From: Desulfatiglandales bacterium
GTDB lineage: Bacteria > Desulfobacterota > DSM-4660 > Desulfatiglandales > Desulfatiglandaceae
Reading direction: 5' to 3'
Assembly (NCBI GenBank): GCA_963662465.1
Contig: OY759599.1
Span: forward strand, 4,512,001 to 4,576,000
Length of the DNA: 64,000 nt
Below are positions 6,029 to 16,241 of the stretch, one piece after another (positions within the stretch are counted from its first letter, which is position 1; each line of letters opens with the position of its first letter). The notes under the pieces are model-generated. The model searched no databases and was not told where the DNA came from. It saw nothing but the letters and a program-made list of their open reading frames with translations. A program made the position numbers and the translations under genes.

Positions 6029-8023
6029 TCAACAGCTTGAAGGAATTACACCGGAACCCATCACTCCGGACGGACCCGTCTCAAGGAGAGGGCGTCTCCG
6101 CCATTTTCCGCTCCCCACCATATGCCGATCCCGTCCGCCGCCGGCGGAATTTCCAGCCACCAATGCCAGCAGACCTTTGACAGTCTGCCGCATCCGTTCC
6201 GCCTGCCCGGCCATTTCTTCAGCCACGCTTGCCGATTCCTCGGCGCCCGCCGCATTGTGCTGAACCACCTTTTCCGTGTCTTCAAATGCCATGTTGAGCT
6301 GTTTGATAGCCGCTGACTGTTCATTGGAAGCGGAAGCGATCCGACTCACCAGTCCGCCGACTTTTTCAGTGCTTCGGGCAACCCGAATGGACTCTTCCCG
6401 GGTTGTGGAAGCCAGTTTGGCGCCTTTTTTCACGCTTTCCAGGGTCCCTGCGATCAGCGCTTCCGTTGTTTTGGCCGCATCCGCTGCCCGAAGGGCCAGT
6501 TTCCGAACTTCATCGGCGACAACCGCAAATCCCGCCCCGGCTTCACCGGCCCTGGCCGCTTCAATCGCGGCATTCAAAGCCAGCAGATTGGTCTGAAAAG
6601 CGATATCATCGATGGTCTTGATAATCTGGGATGTCTCCTGACCGGCTTTTAAAATCTCCTCCATAAAATCGATCAAATGCGCCATGGCGATATTGGCACC
6701 GGCCACGATCCTGCCGGTCTCACCCATCAAGCCATTGGCATCATCGGCGTCATCGGCGTTGTGTCGGGTGGTTGACGCCATCTCGGCCAGGGATGAGGAA
6801 ATTTGTTCGATGGCCGCCGCCTGCTCGGCGGCCCCCTCGGCAAGCGCCTGACTGGTAGCGGAGAGCTGATCGGATGCCGAGGCAACCTGTTCCGCCCCCT
6901 TATCCAGAACGTCCGTGCTGTCGCCAATGGGTTTTGTAATGCTTCGGGCCAAAAGAAAGGCGGCGCCACCTCCCAAGATCAACAGCAACAGGGCGCAAAG
7001 CGATACCACAACCATCAGGGATCGAAAGCCGTTTTGCACGGACAGCGCGGTCGCCGCGATCTCATCCTCGTAGGCGCCGGCACAGATCACCCAATCCCAG
7101 GGGGCGTAATAGGTACACTGAACCACCTTCATGCGAGCCTCGCTTTCATGGCCGTTTTTCCATGGATACCGCACTGTAATCGTGTTGCCCGGTTTTGCGG
7201 AAACGGCCCTTTGGATGATGTCGTAAACAAACGGCTTCCCTTCGGCATCCCTCACCTCCAGGATATCTTCACCATCCCGCTTGCCCTCATGGGATATGAT
7301 ATAATGCCCTTTGTCCTCCCCCTTACCTCCCAGAACACTGACATAGCCGCTTTCGCCAATCCGTTTGGACAGGATCATCCGGCGTATTGCGTCTCCGATC
7401 CGCGCTTTCACCATCTGGTCGAACTCGGTTTTGTACGCCGATGCCGCAATGATCCATCCCCAAGGCGCAAAAATTTTCTGGGCCAGACATTTGGCCCGTG
7501 CATTGGCTTCCCCGGGATTTTTCCACTCGTACTCAAGGTATCCCCCATCACCCATTGTGAGCTGTTTTTGAACAAAATTGTGTTTACGCAAATTTCTTCC
7601 GATCATGGCCCCGTTGGGATGAGCCACCATTATTCCCTCAGAAGACAGCACGCAAACATACCCCGTTTCCCCGATTTTCCGGCTCAACAAATATGACGCA
7701 GCTCTTTCCTTGGCCTCAGCCTCGGTCATGCGACCCGATTGATATTGATCGTAAAAATACCGAACCATCCGTTCGCCGTTCTCTGCAATACTCATACACG
7801 TGGAAACAATGGCGGCACTGGACGCCTGGGCGATGTTTTCGCCGATGGTCTTGGCCATGTCGTCCAACTGCGCCAGCGTCGCTTCCTCCATTTTGACATT
7901 CACCAATTGACTCAAGGCGTTGCTTTTCAAGTACGTCACGATTAAAATAACGAGCGTCGGCAAAATGACACACATCAGGGCAAGGGCGACAATTTTCGTT
8001 CGCAAATTTAATGCATTCATCAT
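6029..8023 (-). CDS. Methyl-accepting chemotaxis protein with Cache domains
   Basis: [37 protein letters not shown] signalling domain; two Cache repeats; AGGAGG RBS. Confidence 0.92.
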
Positions 8024-8192
8024 GTTCAATCCTCCTTATTGAGAAAAAGGCATATGGGTCTGTTTCGCAAACACACATGAGCGGCATTCACACTGCATCA
8101 GCTTCCAGTCGGCTGATAAATACCACCGGAATCCCTGACAACTTAAATGGGAAAATCCGCACAAACGGATGGAAACCGCTACGGCGGCAATA

Positions 8193-8230
8193 TGTTTTGC
8201 AGGTCTAACTCTTTCGAAAAGTTCTGTCAA
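8193..8230 (-). promoter_or_regulatory. Sigma70-like promoter overlapped by a putative DtxR-type operator
   Basis: Minus strand TTGACA-N17-TAGACC; operator-like TGTTTT-GCAGGT-CTAACT at 8193-8210. Same layout as the feoA promoter at 24870-24907. Confidence 0.55.
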
Positions 8231-8458
8231 TCTTTTTTTATTAGGAAATTCAAACATATTTCGTTTCATTGATCAGGAAGGCACAATTCACTCAGAATAG
8301 ACGTCATGAATCAGGCGGGCATTCACCCCCAAACATGGAAATGACATCTACCGCTTTCAAGCTAACGGCTTTATTTTCATGATAAATCAAGGAAACAGAA
8401 ATTAATGCGGCCGAGCGGCCGAAGGGGATAAGGAACTTTATTAAAGGAAAAAAAGCCG

Positions 8459-9358
8459 CTAAACAAACGTCGATATCAGGAAAAGGACTCCCAATGTCGC
8501 AACGGCAAGGCCCGATACGATGCCCATGCACTGTTCTACTTTGACGGCCCGTCTTTCCGAAATAAATTTCAGGGAAAAATCCTTTCCCAAAACAACCGCG
8601 ACAATAACGAAACCGATGGTTGCGGCCATTCCCAATGAAATGACAATTCCCAGCAGCAATCCCAGCATGAACGCGTCCATGGACAGACAGAAGAGCAGAA
8701 CCATGACCACGCCGGGACACGGCACCAAACCCACTGCCAGTGCCCAGGGGAGGAATCTTTTTTGACCTGCCATCGAGGGGCTGCCCGCCACGGAATGGGG
8801 CGTTTCGTTTCCGGAAAAAAAACAATAGCCGTTTTTAATAACGATTGCCAGTCCCAGAAGGGAAATCAGGCTGAAGCTGACCAGTTGCGTGATGTAGGAA
8901 ACCGATCCCAACCCCCCAAAAACGCCCTGCTGAAGGATATGGTGCAGAACTAAAACACAAAGGATTCCTGATAAACCGTGGAAAAGGGCAATGAGTGCGC
9001 CGAACAACAACCCGCCGCCAAGGGTCACATTTCCGGAGAGCATAAACGACATGGCCACGGCTTTGCCGTGTCCGGGCCCGGCCGCATGAAGCGCACCGTA
9101 ACCGAATGCCATCAAGATTACAACCATCAGGGGCATGATGCTTTTTTCGGTTTTCGCCTGTCGGATCAAAGCAGCCATTTTCCCCTTGAGCTGTTGTTGC
9201 CAAAGGGTTATTTTCAATAAAAATGAATGTTGCGGCGCCGGGATCTCGGAAACACGTTCAGGGCTCTTTTCGGCCATAAAGGGATTCCGGGAATGTGCCG
9301 TCGTCCCGGTCCAGATAAAGGCGGAAAACAAAAGGAAAAACAGGAGTATTCTAGCCAT
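8459..9358 (-). CDS. Nickel/cobalt transporter (NicO/RcnA family)
   Basis: YGALHAAGPGHGKAV and GLVPCPG motifs, several TM helices. Confidence 0.88.
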   Translation of the reverse strand: MARILLFFLLFSAFIWTGTTAHSRNPFMAEKSPERVSEIPAPQHSFLLKITLWQQQLKGKMAALIRQAKTEKSIMPLMVVILMAFGYGALHAAGPGHGKAVAMSFMLSGNVTLGGGLLFGALIALFHGLSGILCVLVLHHILQQGVFGGLGSVSYITQLVSFSLISLLGLAIVIKNGYCFFSGNETPHSVAGSPSMAGQKRFLPWALAVGLVPCPGVVMVLLFCLSMDAFMLGLLLGIVISLGMAATIGFVIVAVVLGKDFSLKFISERRAVKVEQCMGIVSGLAVATLGVLFLISTFV

Positions 9359-9971
9359 TTTTGAGCCTGAACCTCACGGTGGCTTCATCGGGATAAATCT
9401 GATCGAAGAAATAGGCCTCGGCCTTATTTTTTTCGATCCGGCGGCGTACCTCAAAAGACCGGTGGTTTTTAAAAACGATCGGCTCTTTTGCCATAAATAT
9501 GCTGGTGTAGTATTCCCTGTCATAAACGGATATTGTAACTTCTTTCCATTTACGCGTGGCGCTCACATGGCAGGGGACAAAAAACCGGTAAATCAAAATA
9601 TTATTTTCAATTTCCGCTGAAAAATTTCTAACGTATTTTACCTGAAACGGTTTTTTGTCTATTTTGATATGGGTAAAATAATCAAACTCCCGCAGATTGG
9701 AAAAGGCGCCCGTTTCCAGTCCCGCAATCTCGGACGGCTCAAATCGTCCATTCCGGTTCTTGTCAAAATCCAGAATAATCATACTGCTGAACATCTCGTC
9801 AAAATCCCATCTGATTTCAAACCCCGAAAGGCCTTTTTGATCAAAGACCACCGTGACCCCATTGAACATAAAAACGTGGGGATGCGCTCGGGACAGAGGG
9901 ACCGAGAGTAGCGGAAAAAGCATTAAACCCGCAAGAATCAAAAATATTCGACGCATCATCATTTCGGTCAT
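9351..9971 (-). CDS. DUF1007 family periplasmic protein
   Basis: Signal peptide followed by AHPHVF, W.FDEMFS, YD.EYY; usual partner of NicO-family genes. Confidence 0.85.
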   Translation of the reverse strand: MTEMMMRRIFLILAGLMLFPLLSVPLSRAHPHVFMFNGVTVVFDQKGLSGFEIRWDFDEMFSSMIILDFDKNRNGRFEPSEIAGLETGAFSNLREFDYFTHIKIDKKPFQVKYVRNFSAEIENNILIYRFFVPCHVSATRKWKEVTISVYDREYYTSIFMAKEPIVFKNHRSFEVRRRIEKNKAEAYFFDQIYPDEATVRFRLKNG

Positions 9972-10092
9972 CCGGATATCGCTTCCTTCGGCAGTTCACA
10001 GCAAAAGAAAACATCACTAAAGATGGCACGAAATGTATTTTAAATGGGATGGGTTGTCAAGACGGCGCATCGCTTCGAGTAAAGCCTGTCAT

Positions 10093-10110
10093 AATTAGAA
10101 ACATCTAAAA
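10093..10110. promoter_or_regulatory. Putative DtxR-type operator upstream of DUF1007-nicO
   Basis: AATTAG-AAACAT-CTAAAA, about 33 bp upstream of a minus-strand TTGACA-N17-TACATT. Confidence 0.45.
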
Positions 10111-10117
10111 AATTTAT

Positions 10118-10427
10118 TCACATGGTGGGATGTTGGTTTACGATATAGAACGCGAAAATACCATGGCCGCTCCCCAAATCCAGCATTTTCTCAAATCCCG
10201 AAAAACCGGGCAGTTCCTCAAGGATTTCCGCCACCTTCGGTCCAACCGTACCCATGGGCCAGGCAGCGCTGGTCCGAGTGAGTTCGGCCCAGAGTTCCTG
10301 GGAAACAAAATCCTTTTCGGCGCTTTCCCCAATCGGCCCCAATATTCGTATTCTTTCCTGTTTTTCATTATCTTGACTCCCAAACGCTGAAATATAAAAT
10401 CGGGGGGTGGAAAAAAACGCGCATCAG
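10118..10427 (-). pseudogene. Fused remnant: 5' end of class I methyltransferase joined to an internal O-methyltransferase piece
   Basis: 10338-10427 matches 14452-14541 (MKNRKEYEYW vs MKNEKEYKYW plus upstream DNA). 10118-10340 encodes PIGESAEKDFVSQELWAELTRTSAAW...MLDLGSGHG, matching the O-methyltransferase copies. Confidence 0.8.
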
Positions 10428-10763
10428 TTTCAATAAATCGCTCACTTTTCTTAGAAGGCTTATTTTCATGACAAAAATTACCGTTTAAGCCCAAGAATAG
10501 GGCTATTTCGGCATAATTAATTAGGCATTTCAACCAGTTGGCTTGGCCCGACCCGGCCAACACGGCCAAGTGGCCAAGTTCCACGTTGTTCAAACGGAAC
10601 GGCGAGGAATTTTTTCCGGAAACCTCACCATTTCCGAATCGATCTCGTAAATTCATAGGAAGTTCCAGTTTGACATAATGGATCGCCCATTGAATACTGC
10701 GCCGCATTATTAAATAGGGCGGTGCATTTTTTTCTCGACCTTCCCTTAACCGGAGAACATCCT

Positions 10764-11585
10764 ATGATATTGCCTTTTCATCCGTGCATGAACCACGATG
10801 CCCATTACCAGGTTCCACGCCTGCATTTGCCGGTAGCGCCAAAATGCAACTTGAGCTGTCGCTTTTGCGAACGGAACATCGACCCGAAAAATTCTTTGAT
10901 CAGTGCTCCCGGCGTAGCCACTGAAATCATGACTCCCGGACAAGCCCTTGAAAAAACCGGACGGTTTTTAAACCGATGGGGTATGTCTGCGATTGTCGGT
11001 ATCGCCGGTCCGGGAGACCCTTTGGCCAATCCTGAAACCCTTGAGACATTCAGGTTGATCCGAAAACGTTATCAAAATGTGAACCTCTGCATTTGTACCA
11101 ACGGTTTAAACCTACCAGAAGCGGTGTCTGAATTAAAGAGACTCAATGTCAAATATCTGACCGTTACAGTCAACGGCCTAGACCCGGCGATTGTCGCAAA
11201 AATCCAACCCTGGATCAACAAAAACGAGACCTTCTTCAGAGGACATGAAGGCGCCCGCATATTGATTCAGAATCAACTGGAGGGAATTCAGGCTGCTGTC
11301 AAAACCGGACTTATCGTCAAGATCAATTCGGTTGTGGTCCCGGGGATTAATGAGATTCATATTGCCGCCATCGCCCAAAAAGCCCGCAACCTGGGCGCCA
11401 CTGTCATCAACCCCATGCCGCTGATCCCCAGAGGCGGGCTAAAGAAATTTAAAGCCCCTTCCAGTGCACAGATGCGGTTCATATATAAAGTCTGTGAAAC
11501 TCAATTGCCGGTTTTTAAGCTGTGCCGTCAGTGCCGTGCGGATGCCGAAGGCATACCGGGAAAGGAGCGACTCTTATGCCGTTAG
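10764..11585 (+). CDS. NifB-like radical SAM protein (SAM domain only)
   Basis: HPC, RLHLPVAPKCNLSCRFC, IAGPGDPL, TVTVN and CRQCRADAEG present; ExRP absent; no NifX domain. Start re-called at ATG 10764 after GGAG. Confidence 0.85.
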   Translation: MILPFHPCMNHDAHYQVPRLHLPVAPKCNLSCRFCERNIDPKNSLISAPGVATEIMTPGQALEKTGRFLNRWGMSAIVGIAGPGDPLANPETLETFRLIRKRYQNVNLCICTNGLNLPEAVSELKRLNVKYLTVTVNGLDPAIVAKIQPWINKNETFFRGHEGARILIQNQLEGIQAAVKTGLIVKINSVVVPGINEIHIAAIAQKARNLGATVINPMPLIPRGGLKKFKAPSSAQMRFIYKVCETQLPVFKLCRQCRADAEGIPGKERLLCR

Positions 11586-12436
11586 AACAAAAGAACGTTA
11601 GCCGACGTGCTTTTTTAAAATCTTCCGGGCTGGCCCTGACCGGGACCCTTGCGGTGTCTGCCGTGGCAAAAGCCGGTGAAGGTAAAAAGCGCTCTCTACA
11701 GGTTTGGTCCTGCGGTGGTTTGGCTGAGGCCTTTATTCCGGCAAATAAAAGGTATGAAAAGGAAAATGGATGCGCAATCGCCTACACCGGCGCGTTTGCC
11801 GGTGCCCTTGGAAAAACCCTGTTAGGGGGCAGCGGCCGGACGGAAGTATTTGCGCCGCGCGTTCTGGGTTTGGCCAAAAAATTGAAAGCACAGGGCAAGA
11901 TGCTAAGCTATAAACCGCTCTGCTTTGCCCAATATGGCCTTGTGGTCCCAAAAGGCAATCCCGCAAACATTCAAAGCATTCAGGACATGGCAAAACCGGG
12001 TGTTCGGGTCGTTTTATCCCCCGATGCATCGCCGCCGGGAGGCAAGGCGTCCATGGTCATTTTAAAAAAGGCGGGCATTATTGAACAGGTGCAAAAAAAT
12101 GCCGTTGTACGGGGAGACTGCGTTCAGACCGCTCTGCCGGCCCTTTTAAACGGTCAGGGAGATGTGGCGGTGGCGGAACTGAGACTGACACGCCTGCCCG
12201 AGTTCAAAGGGAAAGTCGACTGGATCGAAATTCCGGAAAAATACATGCCTCCGCCTCCCATGCCCTTTACCATCGGCGTGATGAAATGGGCCAAAAACAT
12301 TGATATGGCGGAACATTATGTTCGGTTTATCTTATCGGCAAAGGGTCAGAGCTGTTTTGAGAAAGCCGGTTTTATTCCGGCCATGTCGGAAAAAGGGAAA
12401 AGACTCAGCGTAAAATACGGAGTGATCGATGCTTGA
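11576..12436 (+). CDS. Tat-exported ModA-fold substrate-binding-like protein, Cys-substituted
   Basis: SRRAFLK Tat signal; LVVPKGNPANIQSIQDMAKPGVRV is typical of the ModA family; WSCGG and GDCV at presumed ligand loops. Confidence 0.75.
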   Translation: MPLEQKNVSRRAFLKSSGLALTGTLAVSAVAKAGEGKKRSLQVWSCGGLAEAFIPANKRYEKENGCAIAYTGAFAGALGKTLLGGSGRTEVFAPRVLGLAKKLKAQGKMLSYKPLCFAQYGLVVPKGNPANIQSIQDMAKPGVRVVLSPDASPPGGKASMVILKKAGIIEQVQKNAVVRGDCVQTALPALLNGQGDVAVAELRLTRLPEFKGKVDWIEIPEKYMPPPPMPFTIGVMKWAKNIDMAEHYVRFILSAKGQSCFEKAGFIPAMSEKGKRLSVKYGVIDA

Positions 12437-13171
12437 TGCAATTAAAATACAATGGAAACGGCGGTTGGTCCAGTTGATGTCATTGGCTGTCATGGGTGAA
12501 TTCTCATTTTACGGTGTCTTTCGGTGTCCTTTTGCCGTTCCCTACGTTAGCTGCGGTAATTGTCCGGTCATTCAGTGCCCGGGACGAAAATTGTGGCTGA
12601 CGGTCTGGCTGGTCATTCTGGTATCCGCCATTCTGTTCGGCCGCGCTTTCTGCGGCTGGGCATGCCCCGGAGGCCTCCTCTCGGAAATTCTATCACAATT
12701 TTCGCTGCTGCGAAAAAAAATTACAGGCCGAATGGAGATGATCCTCAGCACGGGAAAATACATGGTTTTGGCGGTAAGTCTTTATTTTGTTTTTTTCACC
12801 ATCAATCCGCGATGGGCCATCCCATAAGGACCGGAGATTTTTTCAACTCCGTCAAACTGACCTTTGAACATGGGAATGGGCTCTGGCTGACCCGGACCAT
12901 CATAGTCCTCGGAGGGTTGGCTCTGTGCCTGCTCATTCCCCACTTCTGGTGTCGGTACCTTTGTCCCACGGGCGGATGTCTGGAAATTTTCCGGAAAATA
13001 TCCATATTTAAATATTTCAAAACTTCCGACTGCAATGATTGCGATGCCTGTTTAAGATCGTGCCATATGGAGACCCGGCCGAAAGAGATCAACTGCACCA
13101 ACTGCGGCGACTGCGCCGGTTCCTGTCCCGTTGATGCCATCAAATTCGGGGTTCGCGACAAATCCGAATAA
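12429..13171 (+). pseudogene. NapH/YccM-like membrane 4Fe-4S protein with a one-base frameshift near 12820
   Basis: GRAFCGWACPGG in the first frame; FWCRYLCPTG and two CxxCxxCxxxC in the second. Adding one C to ATCCCATAAGG restores ...WAIPIRTGDFF. Confidence 0.8.
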
Positions 13172-13234
13172 CGTGCGAATCGCTGACTTTTATTTCCACG
13201 CATACTCCGGCTTGCTGAAAAAGCGTGCGAGATC

Positions 13235-13298
13235 GGGGGGCAAGTCTACGGTTGGCCTTTGATAATTTTAACAAGAGTCAATGGTAGACTTGACCCCC
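13235..13298. repeat. REP-like imperfect palindrome
   Basis: GGGGGGCAAGTCTACGGTTGGCCTTTG ... CAAGAGTCAATGGTAGACTTGACCCCC. Confidence 0.6.
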
Positions 13299-13553
13299 AA
13301 TACGTAGCCTCCAATGCCTTCAAAAGCATGGCTTTTTTATGGGAGGGATGATGACCTGCGACCGAATCATGAGGTGTGGTCGTGATGAATTAAGGCTGTC
13401 GCCCCAAATCCTTTTCAATGGTAAGCTAAAATGCTATGAGCCGGTAAAGGACAATGATTTCTGGTGGTTTGAACGGTGAATGGCCGCACTTCCTTCTCTA
13501 AAAGGAATTTCACTGTTTCGAAATCCAGGCGCAGATACACCCCCTATGGTCGT

Positions 13554-13841
13554 TTATTTTCCGCCACCTTCGGTCCAACCGTACCCATGGGCCGCAGCGC
13601 TGGTCCGGGTGACTTCAGCCCAGGGTTCCTGGGAAGCAAGATTCTTTTCGGCGCTTTCCCCAATCGGCTCCTTCCTGATGCGTTCGGCCAGATCTTTTAG
13701 CGGTTCAATGTTCCTGTTTTCAACCCGTTGAAATAGGGCGCCAATGTAGGTGGGAGAATCTTCCGTAAGCAAAGATTGTGAGACCGGAAGGTTGCGATAA
13801 AGCCCGCTGTAATCCATACTTGTTGCCGGCAGTCTATTCAT
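13554..13841 (-). pseudogene. O-methyltransferase pseudogene (internal deletion, frameshift, 3' loss)
   Basis: MNRLPATSMDYSGLY|RNLPVSQ lacks about 64 codons relative to the copy at 1-498; frameshift at TSAA(W). Confidence 0.8.
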
Positions 13842-14481
13842 GGCTTTCTCTCCTTCCTTTCAGACACACAACGTTTGTTTCCTTGCTGATGAGCTTTGAT
13901 TCCTCCACCAAAAATCCGGCCTTTTCCATCAACCCGGCAATTTCCGGCGGACTGACGATCCGATTCTCCCTGGGCGGTATTCCGAATTTCTCCAGATAAC
14001 GAATGCCCATAATAAGCTTTGACCGGAGCGCCATGCCATGGGATGTGGAATCCACCAGCACAATGCTTCCCCCAGGCTTGGTGACCCTGCGGCTTTCATT
14101 CAGAACATCCATCGGACGGCCGAGAATATGGATGACATTCCCTAAAAAAACGACATCGAAAACGCCGTCCGAAAACGAGGTGTGATAACAGTTTTCCATC
14201 TTCACTGTCGCATTTCGCAACGGATCCAGTCTCCGTTTCACAAGCCCAAGCATTTCAAGAGATCGGTCCGTGGCCGTCAGATGCCTGACTTTGCCTGCAA
14301 TAACCAATGAAAAATGGCCGGTTCCGCAACCCAATTCCAACACCTCATCCTTGGCTTTGAACTGGTTCCCGATCCAGTGGTTTGTTGCCCACTGCGTTTT
14401 CTTTCCAACCACATAAGATGTGGCAGCGTCAAAATTACGTGCCTTTTTGCTCCAATATTTGTATTCTTTCTCGTTTTTCAT
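13834..14481 (-). CDS. Class I SAM-dependent methyltransferase (UbiE-like)
   Basis: VLELGCGTG, FDVVF, RVTKPGG. Confidence 0.88.
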   Translation of the reverse strand: MKNEKEYKYWSKKARNFDAATSYVVGKKTQWATNHWIGNQFKAKDEVLELGCGTGHFSLVIAGKVRHLTATDRSLEMLGLVKRRLDPLRNATVKMENCYHTSFSDGVFDVVFLGNVIHILGRPMDVLNESRRVTKPGGSIVLVDSTSHGMALRSKLIMGIRYLEKFGIPPRENRIVSPPEIAGLMEKAGFLVEESKLISKETNVVCLKGRRESHE

Positions 14482-14682
14482 TATGTTGACTCCCAAACGC
14501 TGAGATACAAAATCGATGGTGGAAAAAAACGCGCATTAGTGCCTTACAGATCAAATGCTTCGAAAAAAACAAGATGATCAATATAACAAAATGAGTTCAT
14601 TGGTAAAATAACTTAAAACTTAAAACTGCGGCTTGCCGCTTTAGTTTCAATAACATGCGTCTGAAGCCGATAACCCGTTTAA

Positions 14683-15840
14683 TCAAAAATCGGCCGTGAG
14701 TCGCACGCCCAGGATCCACCCCTTTGGGCTGTCGCCCTCTTTCATTACATCCTTCATGTATTGAACATCACCGGTGACGGCGAAAATGTCATTGAGGGCG
14801 AACCGGCCGTAGGCCTCAAACACGTCTGTGCTATCCGCATTCATGTTTCCACCCATCAGATAGCCATAAGCGATCCCGATATTATCCGATGCTCGCCCCC
14901 AGAGCTTTCCGCTGACATTCAATCCACCGGAATAGAGGTCTCCATAAGTTACGGCGGCGGCATCATCCTGCCAGGCAAACCGAATCTAAGTCCCCAAAAT
15001 TTTGCCAAACTGCTGATCAAAGGAGATGGATGCCGCACCCAGCCGCTCCTTTCCGTTGCCGGTCACATTGCTGAAATCACTGCTCGTTGTATCCACGAGC
15101 AACCGGTAGTTCCCTTTCCCGAGACGAAAATCCACAGTGTAACCCAACTGGATCCCAAAAAAATTGTAGGGTTCGTCAAGCGCCCCGGCTTCCCCATTGC
15201 TCCCAACGGCCATGGCCGCAGCATTAAGGGAAAACCCGCCGATACCCCATTCCATCACCACCCCGATGTCATAAGACGGCACAAAGGCATTGGGACCGTT
15301 TACAAAGGTCGCATTCATAAACTGGCGGTACTCATCATTGGCAAAGGCGTTTACGTCCAGATAGTCCGTGGCATCGATGATACCTCCGGTTAAACCCAGT
15401 GTGTGATCCTTGCTGAAACTGAAGGTATGCTTGTACCATGCCGTGAGGAGATAGTCGCGATTTCGGCCGTTGATGTTTTTAACGCCATCCTGAGTATCAC
15501 CACCCCACGAGGCCAAGATAAAGGGAGACCGGCCATCTTCCATCAATCCGTTTCCCGCGCCAAACCCAAACTTGACAAAAAATTCGTCGTTGCCGGTAGG
15601 GCGAAAACCGATTGTGGGCTGAAATGCTAAAAGACCGCTGCCTTCGCTCTCATGGTTCGGGAAATCCGTGATGCTCTGATACTGGTATATCCCAGCAATG
15701 ACGCCGCCCACTGAAAATTGGTCGTTGATTTCATGAGCAAACCCAGTCCGCCCCGGCAAAACAAACCCCAAGATCGTGCATAACAAACCCAGGACCTGCT
15801 TCTTTCTCGCCTTCGTGCCTTGTTGTATCGCTTGGGACAT
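14683..15840 (-). pseudogene. OprB-like outer-membrane porin interrupted by an in-frame TAG at 14986-14988
   Basis: Collinear with the intact paralog 34078-35214 (ILGT*IRFAWQDD vs ILGAWLRFGFQDD); both halves are in the same frame; ends in Phe. Confidence 0.8.
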
Positions 15841-15845
15841 GATGG

Positions 15846-16241
15846 CTAACTGGGATAAAACGGCATCAGTTCGTCGAACAGCTTTTCATCCCGGAACACC
15901 AGACCGCCCCGGCGGGCGTCATTGGCGATCATATCGGAAGAAAAAAGGGAAACCGTCTGCCGGTGAATGCATAGCACATAGTAATCCATTTTGAACAACT
16001 CCACACGATAAAGCGTTTTGGGTTTGGGATTGCCCTTATAACTGTCGGCACTGAGATAAACCCTTCTCCCATCTTTTTTAACCCGGTTCAGGGCCTTGGC
16101 AATAACCCTTCTGATCTCGTTTGCATTTCGCCGCTTACGTCTGACGGCCGGATCGCCGACCCTTTCTTTATAGGAGTTAACCGTGTGGGCGCCGATCGAC
16201 CAGTCGCTATTGACGCGTTTCCTGATTTTAGCCATGATCAT
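15846..16241 (-). CDS. Hypothetical basic protein
   Basis: 131-aa ORF with AAGGAG RBS, in operon orientation. Confidence 0.6.
   Translation of the reverse strand: MIMAKIRKRVNSDWSIGAHTVNSYKERVGDPAVRRKRRNANEIRRVIAKALNRVKKDGRRVYLSADSYKGNPKPKTLYRVELFKMDYYVLCIHRQTVSLFSSDMIANDARRGGLVFRDEKLFDELMPFYPS

Follow-up and report, generated by a model that had tools for sequence, protein, structure and literature searches.

A conserved NifB-associated operon encoding an exported ModA-fold protein and a membrane ferredoxin, and its possible role in selenium scavenging

Introduction

Six sequence fingerprints have been defined for the radical S-adenosylmethionine (SAM) enzyme NifB (PMC5715403), and roles have been assigned to its cluster ligands (PMC8179604). 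NifB is universal in methanogens (bioRxiv 2023.10.20.563283). L-type clusters are held by two Cys or His residues in McrC, Mmp7 and MarD, and their maturation can take up reduced selenite (PMC12176620, PMC13474568, PMC12552129). The oxyanion of ModA is bound through Ser12, Ser39, Ala125, Val152 and Tyr170 (PMC8895017), and YedE, DUF3343, LysR_Se and related families are tied to selenium (PMC5322559). Here we describe an operon that combines a NifB-type enzyme with a ModA-fold protein and a four-helix membrane ferredoxin in a Desulfatiglandales bacterium (GenBank assembly GCA_963662465.1, contig OY759599.1, positions 4,512,001 to 4,576,000 of the forward strand; this whole stretch of 64,000 nucleotides is called the window). 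It consists of three overlapping plus-strand genes, located as an earlier note on this DNA had placed them (Table 1).

Judged by sequence comparison, the operon is real and conserved. The ModA-fold protein (the binding protein) and the membrane ferredoxin are shown by comparison across genomes to form an obligate pair that appears to need a NifB, either its own or that of a nif system, and this NifB dependence is well supported. Our best reading, which we hold tentatively and put a little short of an even chance, is that the operon encodes a NifB-dependent redox module which scavenges selenium at the cell surface, with an Fe8 carbide cluster carried on the protein exported by the twin-arginine translocation (Tat) system. 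The selenium connection, and the fact that many copies use a canonical NifB, had escaped the earlier note.

Results

Conservation of the operon and its association with NifB

Relatives were found in 286 GTDB species, and the best 80 loci were read; these best 80 of 286 came from Thermodesulfobacteriota, Planctomycetota, Bacteroidota, Acidobacteriota and Spirochaetota. The full trio was also present in Veillonella, Megasphaera micronuciformis, Colibacter and Campylobacter concisus, none of which is known to fix nitrogen. The pair also occurs in Methanococcales, as AVB75435.1 and the accession that follows it, AVB75436.1. The binding protein was followed by the membrane ferredoxin in all 74 genome loci with at least 900 nt downstream; metagenome loci of the same downstream length, which are near-copies of a few species, showed the pair in 73 of 74. 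A NifB gene adjoined the pair in 51 of the 80 loci, in two gene orders. The earlier note had allowed that homologs might routinely sit with modBC or in nif clusters; a ModB-like gene was nearby in one of 84 loci, and the homologs were not located in nif clusters. No kinase or receptor gene was conserved near the loci.

NifB was searched for in 50 and then in 27 genomes of the 80 loci, the remaining three belonging to the phylum sample below. In 47 of the 50 and 24 of the 27 genomes there was a NifB-type gene, and one of the misses (G463) has an adjacent copy cut by the contig edge. For twelve loci interrupted by contig ends, the presence of an adjacent copy was not scored. Among the genomes scored as having none, 18 of 19 encode a long NifB elsewhere, while 14 of the 30 scored with an adjacent copy have no other NifB (Fisher p=0.003 over 48 rows, in which kin are not independent). 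In an even phylum sample of 300 genomes, a NifB was present in all nine that have the pair, compared with 66 of the remaining 291. Loss of the adjacent NifB occurred at least seven times on the binding-protein tree (12 on the best tree), and the losses in the window's clade also coincide with a nif NifB. These comparisons tie the pair to NifB activity and give partial support to the earlier proposal of a periplasmic redox protein served by a NifB paralog. The nifD gene was detected in 35 of 50 genomes. No Nif-family gene was found in the host genome (G000) or in G007, G011, G026, G030, G250 and G341; G149 and G338 have nitrogenase-like pairs.

The binding protein and the membrane ferredoxin

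The model of the binding protein displayed a ModA fold (predicted local distance difference test 83; Z 25.9 and root mean square deviation 2.0 over 224 residues to 4KD5), with weak sequence similarity to 4KD5 (21%). It scored 35.5 bits with TIGR01256 (cut-off 62.5), and the Veillonella and Methanococcus homologs were also below the cut-off (30.4 and 39.8). The ESM Atlas gave generic family names only, and no curated family covering the binding protein or the membrane protein was found, profile scores being below the cut-offs. The twin-Arg signal, already recognized in the earlier note, reads SRRAFLK, and 78 of 79 bacterial homologs have the RRxF motif. The same note had listed five Cys, including a WSCGG where ModA has AAAS. 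All are seen in the window, and three of the five are conserved in the aligned loci: C46 (79/79), C116 (80/80) and C182 (80/80), with C66 (22/80) and C260 (11/80) variable. R95, E201, R203 and K80 are likewise invariant.

The columns of ModA S12, S39 and Y170 hold G48, A75 and E201, all invariant. Since these oxyanion residues are replaced, ordinary molybdate binding is unlikely, and the sequence agrees with the earlier view that this is not a normal ModA. In the alignment to ModA, C46 falls within the first anion loop; C182 is placed directly ahead of the Val152 equivalent, in the opposite lobe. The next comparison uses Escherichia coli ModA numbering. C46 and C182 are one residue off the engineered cross-cleft disulfide A11C/R153C (3AXF), with offsets read from alignments; in ModA, that disulfide bridges the two anion loops. 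Archaeal relatives keep only C46 and C182 of the conserved Cys, together with R95, E201 and R203. No internal TGA indicating selenocysteine was found in the three genes of the 80 loci with scan patterns that favoured Cys forms, and selenocysteine was not seen at the key Cys; a TGA flagged in G250 falls outside the aligned core.

All 29 longer relatives of the binding protein were fusions of NifB with the binding protein, in a search that covered binding-protein fusions only. Most of them keep an internal Met before the twin-Arg, and the fusion genes may also yield separate proteins. Three further proteins of about 730 aa (P0149, P0156 and P0157) have this binding domain, with C46, R95 and C182 kept, fused to long helical repeats.

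The membrane ferredoxin has 16 Cys that are invariant in 75 of 75 rows: four in the loop that follows helix 1 (C33, C42, C45 and C50), two Cx3CP and two [4Fe-4S] motifs. The modelled helices span residues 9-32, 52-70, 109-122 and 151-168. If the NapH topology holds, the four-Cys loop presumably faces outwards and the C-terminus lies, by analogy, in the cytoplasm. The archaeal partner keeps the four-Cys loop. With TIGR02163, the intact protein of locus L001, which the window matches at 98% identity across 10.8 kb, scored 57.6 bits (cut-off 213). Fold searches with the model gave no clear match, which does not indicate a new fold. A predicted complex of the membrane ferredoxin, the binding protein and four [4Fe-4S] clusters scored 0.16 against a mark of 0.32 and was used neither way. 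The earlier classification of the third gene as NapH/YccM-like agrees with the helices and motifs; the note did not mention that a missing base breaks the frame. L001 reads CCCC at this position, and four of four sequencing runs insert a C behind 12820 at full depth; in two of these runs the contig otherwise equals the window and may have been its source. As the extra C is in all four runs, the gene is intact and encodes 247 aa.

In the reading that we prefer, NifB would fuse two [4Fe-4S] clusters and insert a carbide, giving an [8Fe-9S-C] L-type cluster that would be loaded on the ModA-fold protein in the cytoplasm. C46 and C182 would bind the two terminal irons across the cleft, R95, R203 and K80 would balance the charge, and the loaded protein would be exported by Tat. 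The two-Cys, Arg-lined cleft, the Tat export and the NifB fusions fit a cluster that spans the cleft and receives electrons via the membrane protein. The latter would carry low-potential electrons outwards through two cytoplasmic [4Fe-4S] clusters, a cluster at the Cx3CP pair and the outer four-Cys site. The exported cluster might then reduce or cleave a scarce extracellular selenium compound (candidates are selenocyanate, methyl-selenium species and selenite) to selenide, which YedE would take up for SelD.

The same selenium module might instead carry the NifB cluster on the membrane protein, at the outer four-Cys loop or the Cx3CP pair, with a metal-free ModA-fold protein that captures selenium between C46 and C182 (e.g., as S-Se-S) and passes it to the membrane enzyme. 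We regard this as the main rival and as rather unlikely. The archaeal homologs, which keep C46, C182, R95, E201 and R203 without a Tat signal and whose partner keeps the four-Cys loop, would agree with it, as would the closing of the two ModA loops to bonding distance in 3AXF and the 16 invariant Cys. However, the twin-Arg is kept in almost all bacterial homologs, the fusions join NifB to the binding protein and never to the membrane protein (within the scope of that search), and the loading of an outer loop from the cytoplasm would be hard to explain.

The NifB-type enzyme

The radical SAM enzyme of the window aligned over its full length with NifB 7BI7 (E 3e-69). It contains HPC, Cx3Cx2C, AGPG, TxTxN and Cx2CRxDAxG and lacks ExRP, i.e., five of the six fingerprints, as the earlier note had seen. 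The lack of ExRP applies to this enzyme and is not a trait of the system, since it is limited to one of two operon NifB clades. The radical SAM cluster ligands are C28, C32 and C35, and the K-cluster ligands C8, H21, C109, C254 and C257 correspond to NifB C18, H31, C115, C260 and C263. T135, K186 and N188, the equivalents of NifB T141, K192 and N194, are kept. The ligand columns are near-invariant (48-51 of 49-51 rows). The TIGR01290 score of 262.4 is below the cut-off of 343.65; this model includes the NifX domain, and short NifBs within nif clusters were also below it (292 and 278). The operon NifB of C. concisus passed with 346.8.

Among 49 distinct adjacent NifBs, ExRP was present in 20 and the C52/E53 loop absent in 29. 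They separated into two clades in a quick tree. The first (29 rows, support 97) is encoded upstream of the pair and has no ExRP; the second (20 rows, support 99) is encoded downstream, displays all six fingerprints and is sister to the long nif NifBs (support 97). The gut and oral operon NifBs formed a third group near the second clade, with both ExRP and the C52/E53 loop. A single clade for all operon NifBs was rejected by the approximately unbiased test (p=0.018; fast LG+G4 search, 2000 replicates, loop columns removed, 40 rows). The phylogeny thereby indicates that NifB was recruited to the operon at least twice.

Mutating C52/E53 abolished the production of NifB-co (PMC8179604). In G121 and G116, NifBs without this loop sit in nifH-nifD-nifK clusters as the sole NifB match. 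An enzyme of the window's clade could stop short of the L-cluster and make an 8Fe cluster that lacks carbide or is altered in another way, or methylate cluster-bound S or Se, the pair then tolerating several 8Fe clusters, possibly of the double-cubane type. The loop-less adjacent copies would be in line with this, as would a double-cubane reductase with its activator beside the pair in G015, G035 and G464, three of five genomes with the pair and no NifB match. It is nevertheless improbable in our judgment, given the loop-less NifBs of G121 and G116, the coincidence of adjacent-copy losses in this clade with a nif NifB, and the retention of K186, N188 and T135.

At L151:5211-12553 and L152:3-3710, the sole NifB of a nitrogenase cluster is without the Cys/Glu loop that is reported to be required for NifB-co synthesis. 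At L153:4751-13033, a short NifB has a TonB-dependent receptor on one side and, on the other, uncharacterised genes and then NifH-like genes. Double-cubane reductase genes beside the pair were seen at L029:4609-6626, L036:1832-3784, L060:54-2237 and L157:2998-7973; the trio of L157 lies between two copies.

Link to selenium

The selenium gene set was chosen after the loci had been viewed, and genes within 8 kb were counted. A gene of this set was near 21 of 84 loci: YedE at 8, TIGR01977 at 5, DUF3343 at 5, SelB at 5, LysR_Se at 4, a full-length double-cubane reductase at 7 and a TIM barrel at 5. Negativicutes loci add TIGR01977 (Sec-lyase-like) and YedE neighbours. Neighbours passed the selenium-specific models TIGR04112 and NF040786 above the family cut-offs.

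De novo motif discovery in front of the operons gave an operator, AT[AC]G-N7-C[TG]AT, which has the form of a LysR-type box (T-N11-A). It was present in 24 of 72 operons (shuffles 1.4, maximum 5), the pattern being derived from the same set, and on independent data it preceded yedE in 17 of 40 genomes without the operon (shuffles 0.8, maximum 5). It was found upstream of selD in one of 18 cases, and in none of 42 upstream regions of separate nifB genes, none of five stretches from four further operons and none of nine gut operons. Comparison of upstream regions shows the pair and yedE to share what appears to be one regulon, YedE being a candidate selenium transporter. In L238-L277, the AT[AC]G-N7-C[TG]AT palindrome ahead of yedE is a candidate site for a selenium LysR regulator.

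On selenium starvation, MMJJ_00160 of Methanococcus maripaludis rose 55-fold in RNA and 14.6-fold in protein, and the membrane protein gene MMJJ_00170 rose 14-fold (PMC11097638). YedE, DUF3343, TusA, HgdB, a TIM barrel and a methyl-selenide system were co-induced, while nif genes fell (PMC11097638). The first five of these also occur as neighbours of the operon loci. AVB75435.1 and MMJJ_00160 carry identical annotation wording. MMJJ_00160 is probably AVB75435.1, an ortholog of the binding protein, because of this annotation, the adjacent membrane protein and the gene order relative to nif. The S2 locus numbers used in this mapping are partly our assumption. The gene order rules out the three loci that bioRxiv 2024.03.05.583561 gives as true modA. 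For M. maripaludis, selenocyanate is usable at a concentration ten times lower than selenite (PMC11097638). A selenium link of the module is thus supported by several comparisons. An alginate-export-type porin of about 500 aa adjoins the operon in eight of 84 loci (L002, L004, L006, L029, L047, L056, L074 and L154) and is a candidate outer-membrane entry for the substrate.

The module might also serve sulfur, by scavenging thiosulfate, polysulfide or organosulfur, or act in sensing instead of catalysis. One could take in this sense the rhodanese genes found near 15 of 80 loci, the neighbouring TusA and desulfurase-like genes, and the use of the L-cluster by Mar enzymes for C-S cleavage. However, the neighbours pass the selenium-specific TIGR04112 and NF040786, the probable ortholog responds to selenium, and no kinase or receptor is conserved nearby. 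Most hosts of the operon are sulfide producers, which counts against a sulfur role, and we regard both versions as very improbable. An ordinary molybdate or tungstate binding protein with a distant ABC (ATP-binding cassette) transporter and incidental neighbours can hardly be meant: database names call the homologs molybdate-binding protein, the fold is that of ModA and G000 encodes a ModABC-like operon elsewhere, but that operon has its own binding protein, the S12, S39 and Y170 equivalents are invariantly replaced, the TIGR01256 score is below the cut-off and the pairing with the membrane ferredoxin is obligate.

Several observations weigh against a NifB-dependent, selenium-scavenging exported module. 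Five genomes (G002, G015, G035, G457 and G464), all fragmented, have the pair and no NifB match; many hosts belong to nif-rich families; and a tree-aware test of independent pairs (six pairs, none opposing) was not significant (median p 0.5). The NifB clade of the window has no C52/E53 loop. The Methanococcus binding protein has a lipobox, no twin-Arg and no C116 and may be exported empty, and the ferredoxin domain of its partner is truncated; this archaeal lipoprotein weakens the argument of the earlier note from Tat export. Around the window's copy there is neither a selenium neighbour nor a perfect operator (best 6 of 8). Genome-wide, yedE was not enriched (27/58 vs. 134/301), and selD was uninformative (55/58 vs. 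118/121 in the background; two larger genomes without selD have selA). The mapping of MMJJ_00160 is indirect, and in the supplement of PMC11097638 the two genes that follow are named ModB and ModC; its main table calls MMJJ_00180 a putative permease.

Genomic context of the operon

The host genome is complete (8.16 Mb). Among the 38+10 open reading frames of the window that were scanned, there was no ABC permease, ATPase or nif gene, as the earlier note had stated, and the whole genome contained no PF00148 match and no second NifB. An Rfam scan of window positions 8000-16000 gave no match. Sites like the possible promoter in Table 1 were not above chance (4 found vs. 3.5 expected).

Degenerate repeats, 67-91% identical, flank the operon at window positions 10121-10428, 13558-13671, 14449-14540 and ~1-270, and occur in this genome only inside this 15 kb. 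A mobile element that carried the operon into the genome may have left them behind. A metal-uptake island (window 8459-44436) contains DUF1007 and NicO, flavodoxin, FeoA, two FeoB, three P-type ATPases, DUF4198 and a DtxR-type regulator and adjoins nrdDG. The DUF1007/NicO neighbours were rejected as members of the system, being conserved at one of 80 loci.

Table 1. Features of the operon in window coordinates
Feature	Position	Strand	Basis
Possible sigma-70 promoter, TTGACA-17-AATACT	10670..10698	+	consensus match only
NifB-type radical SAM enzyme, single-domain, 273 aa, clade without C52/E53 loop	10764..11585	+	TIGR01290, 7BI7 alignment
ModA-fold periplasmic protein, 286 aa, twin-Arg signal (RR = codons 10-11)	11576..12436	+	PF13531, model
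Codon of C46	11711..11713	+	
Codon of C116	11921..11923	+	
Codon of C182	12119..12121	+	
Four-helix membrane ferredoxin, 247 aa if intact	12429..13171	+	PF12801/NapH-like, below cut-off
Assembly error, one C short in a C run, breaks the ferredoxin frame in this assembly alone	12818..12821	+	

Discussion

The gathering of selenium with a NifB cofactor, proposed here for three linked genes that occur in many anaerobes which are not nitrogen fixers, would be a use of this cofactor not described before in bacteria. The module could be the first client of NifB in bacteria that does not have the nitrogenase fold, and also the first [8Fe-9S-C] enzyme to be exported. A solute-binding-protein fold would here have become a reductase that is wired to the membrane, works without ATP and releases selenium from extracellular compounds; this is possible, at somewhat less than an even chance. 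If true, it would account for the orphan nifB genes of Veillonella, Megasphaera, oral Campylobacter and sulfate reducers, and prokaryotic selenium uptake would gain a step that has been missing. A soluble protein of about 250 residues with the nitrogenase cofactor core and a membrane wire without ATPase would then be a minimal system for study and engineering, and nifB in gut, oral and sediment metagenomes would be no marker of nitrogen fixation. No description of the operon was found in the literature, subscription papers not being covered, and the accessible part of PMC13188914 does not list the module.

The binding protein resembles ModA and WtpA in its fold and in a weak sequence similarity, and differs in the replaced anion ligands, the invariant cleft Cys, the Tat signal and the lack of a permease and ATPase. 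The membrane protein shares four helices, two Cx3CP and two [4Fe-4S] motifs with NapH, MauN and YccM, whereas its profile score is far below the cut-off, it has the extra invariant four-Cys loop and its partner has a binding-protein fold. The YedE/YedF/DUF3343/LysR_Se set has neighbourhoods, the operator and an association with double-cubane proteins in common with the module, but the accessible part of PMC5322559 names no NifB, ModA-fold or ferredoxin member. The SAO system, a complete ABC transporter with selenoprotein subunits, is unlike the module.

Single-domain NifB of the methanogen type (7BI7 and 6Y1X) agrees with the operon enzymes in whole-length alignment, in the radical SAM and K-cluster ligands, in the equivalents of K192, N194 and T141 and in the fingerprints (five of six in the window's enzyme, six of six in the second operon clade). 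The operon differs in that G000 has no Nif-family client, the window's clade has no C52/E53 loop and an exported protein is encoded alongside. The McrC/Mmp7 complex that activates methyl-coenzyme M reductase likewise holds L-type clusters outside the Nif family, with two protein ligands each, and explains NifB in non-fixing methanogens (PMC12176620). It is archaeal, cytoplasmic, ATP-driven and of unrelated folds, whereas the module described here is mostly bacterial, would act outside the membrane and has no ATPase. In the methylthio-alkane reductase MarBHDK, a NifB paralog supplies [Fe8S9C] to an enzyme that cleaves carbon-chalcogen bonds in nutrient scavenging (PMC12552129), which resembles the role proposed here for selenium; unlike the present module, Mar has a nitrogenase fold, depends on ATP, is cytoplasmic and serves sulfur.

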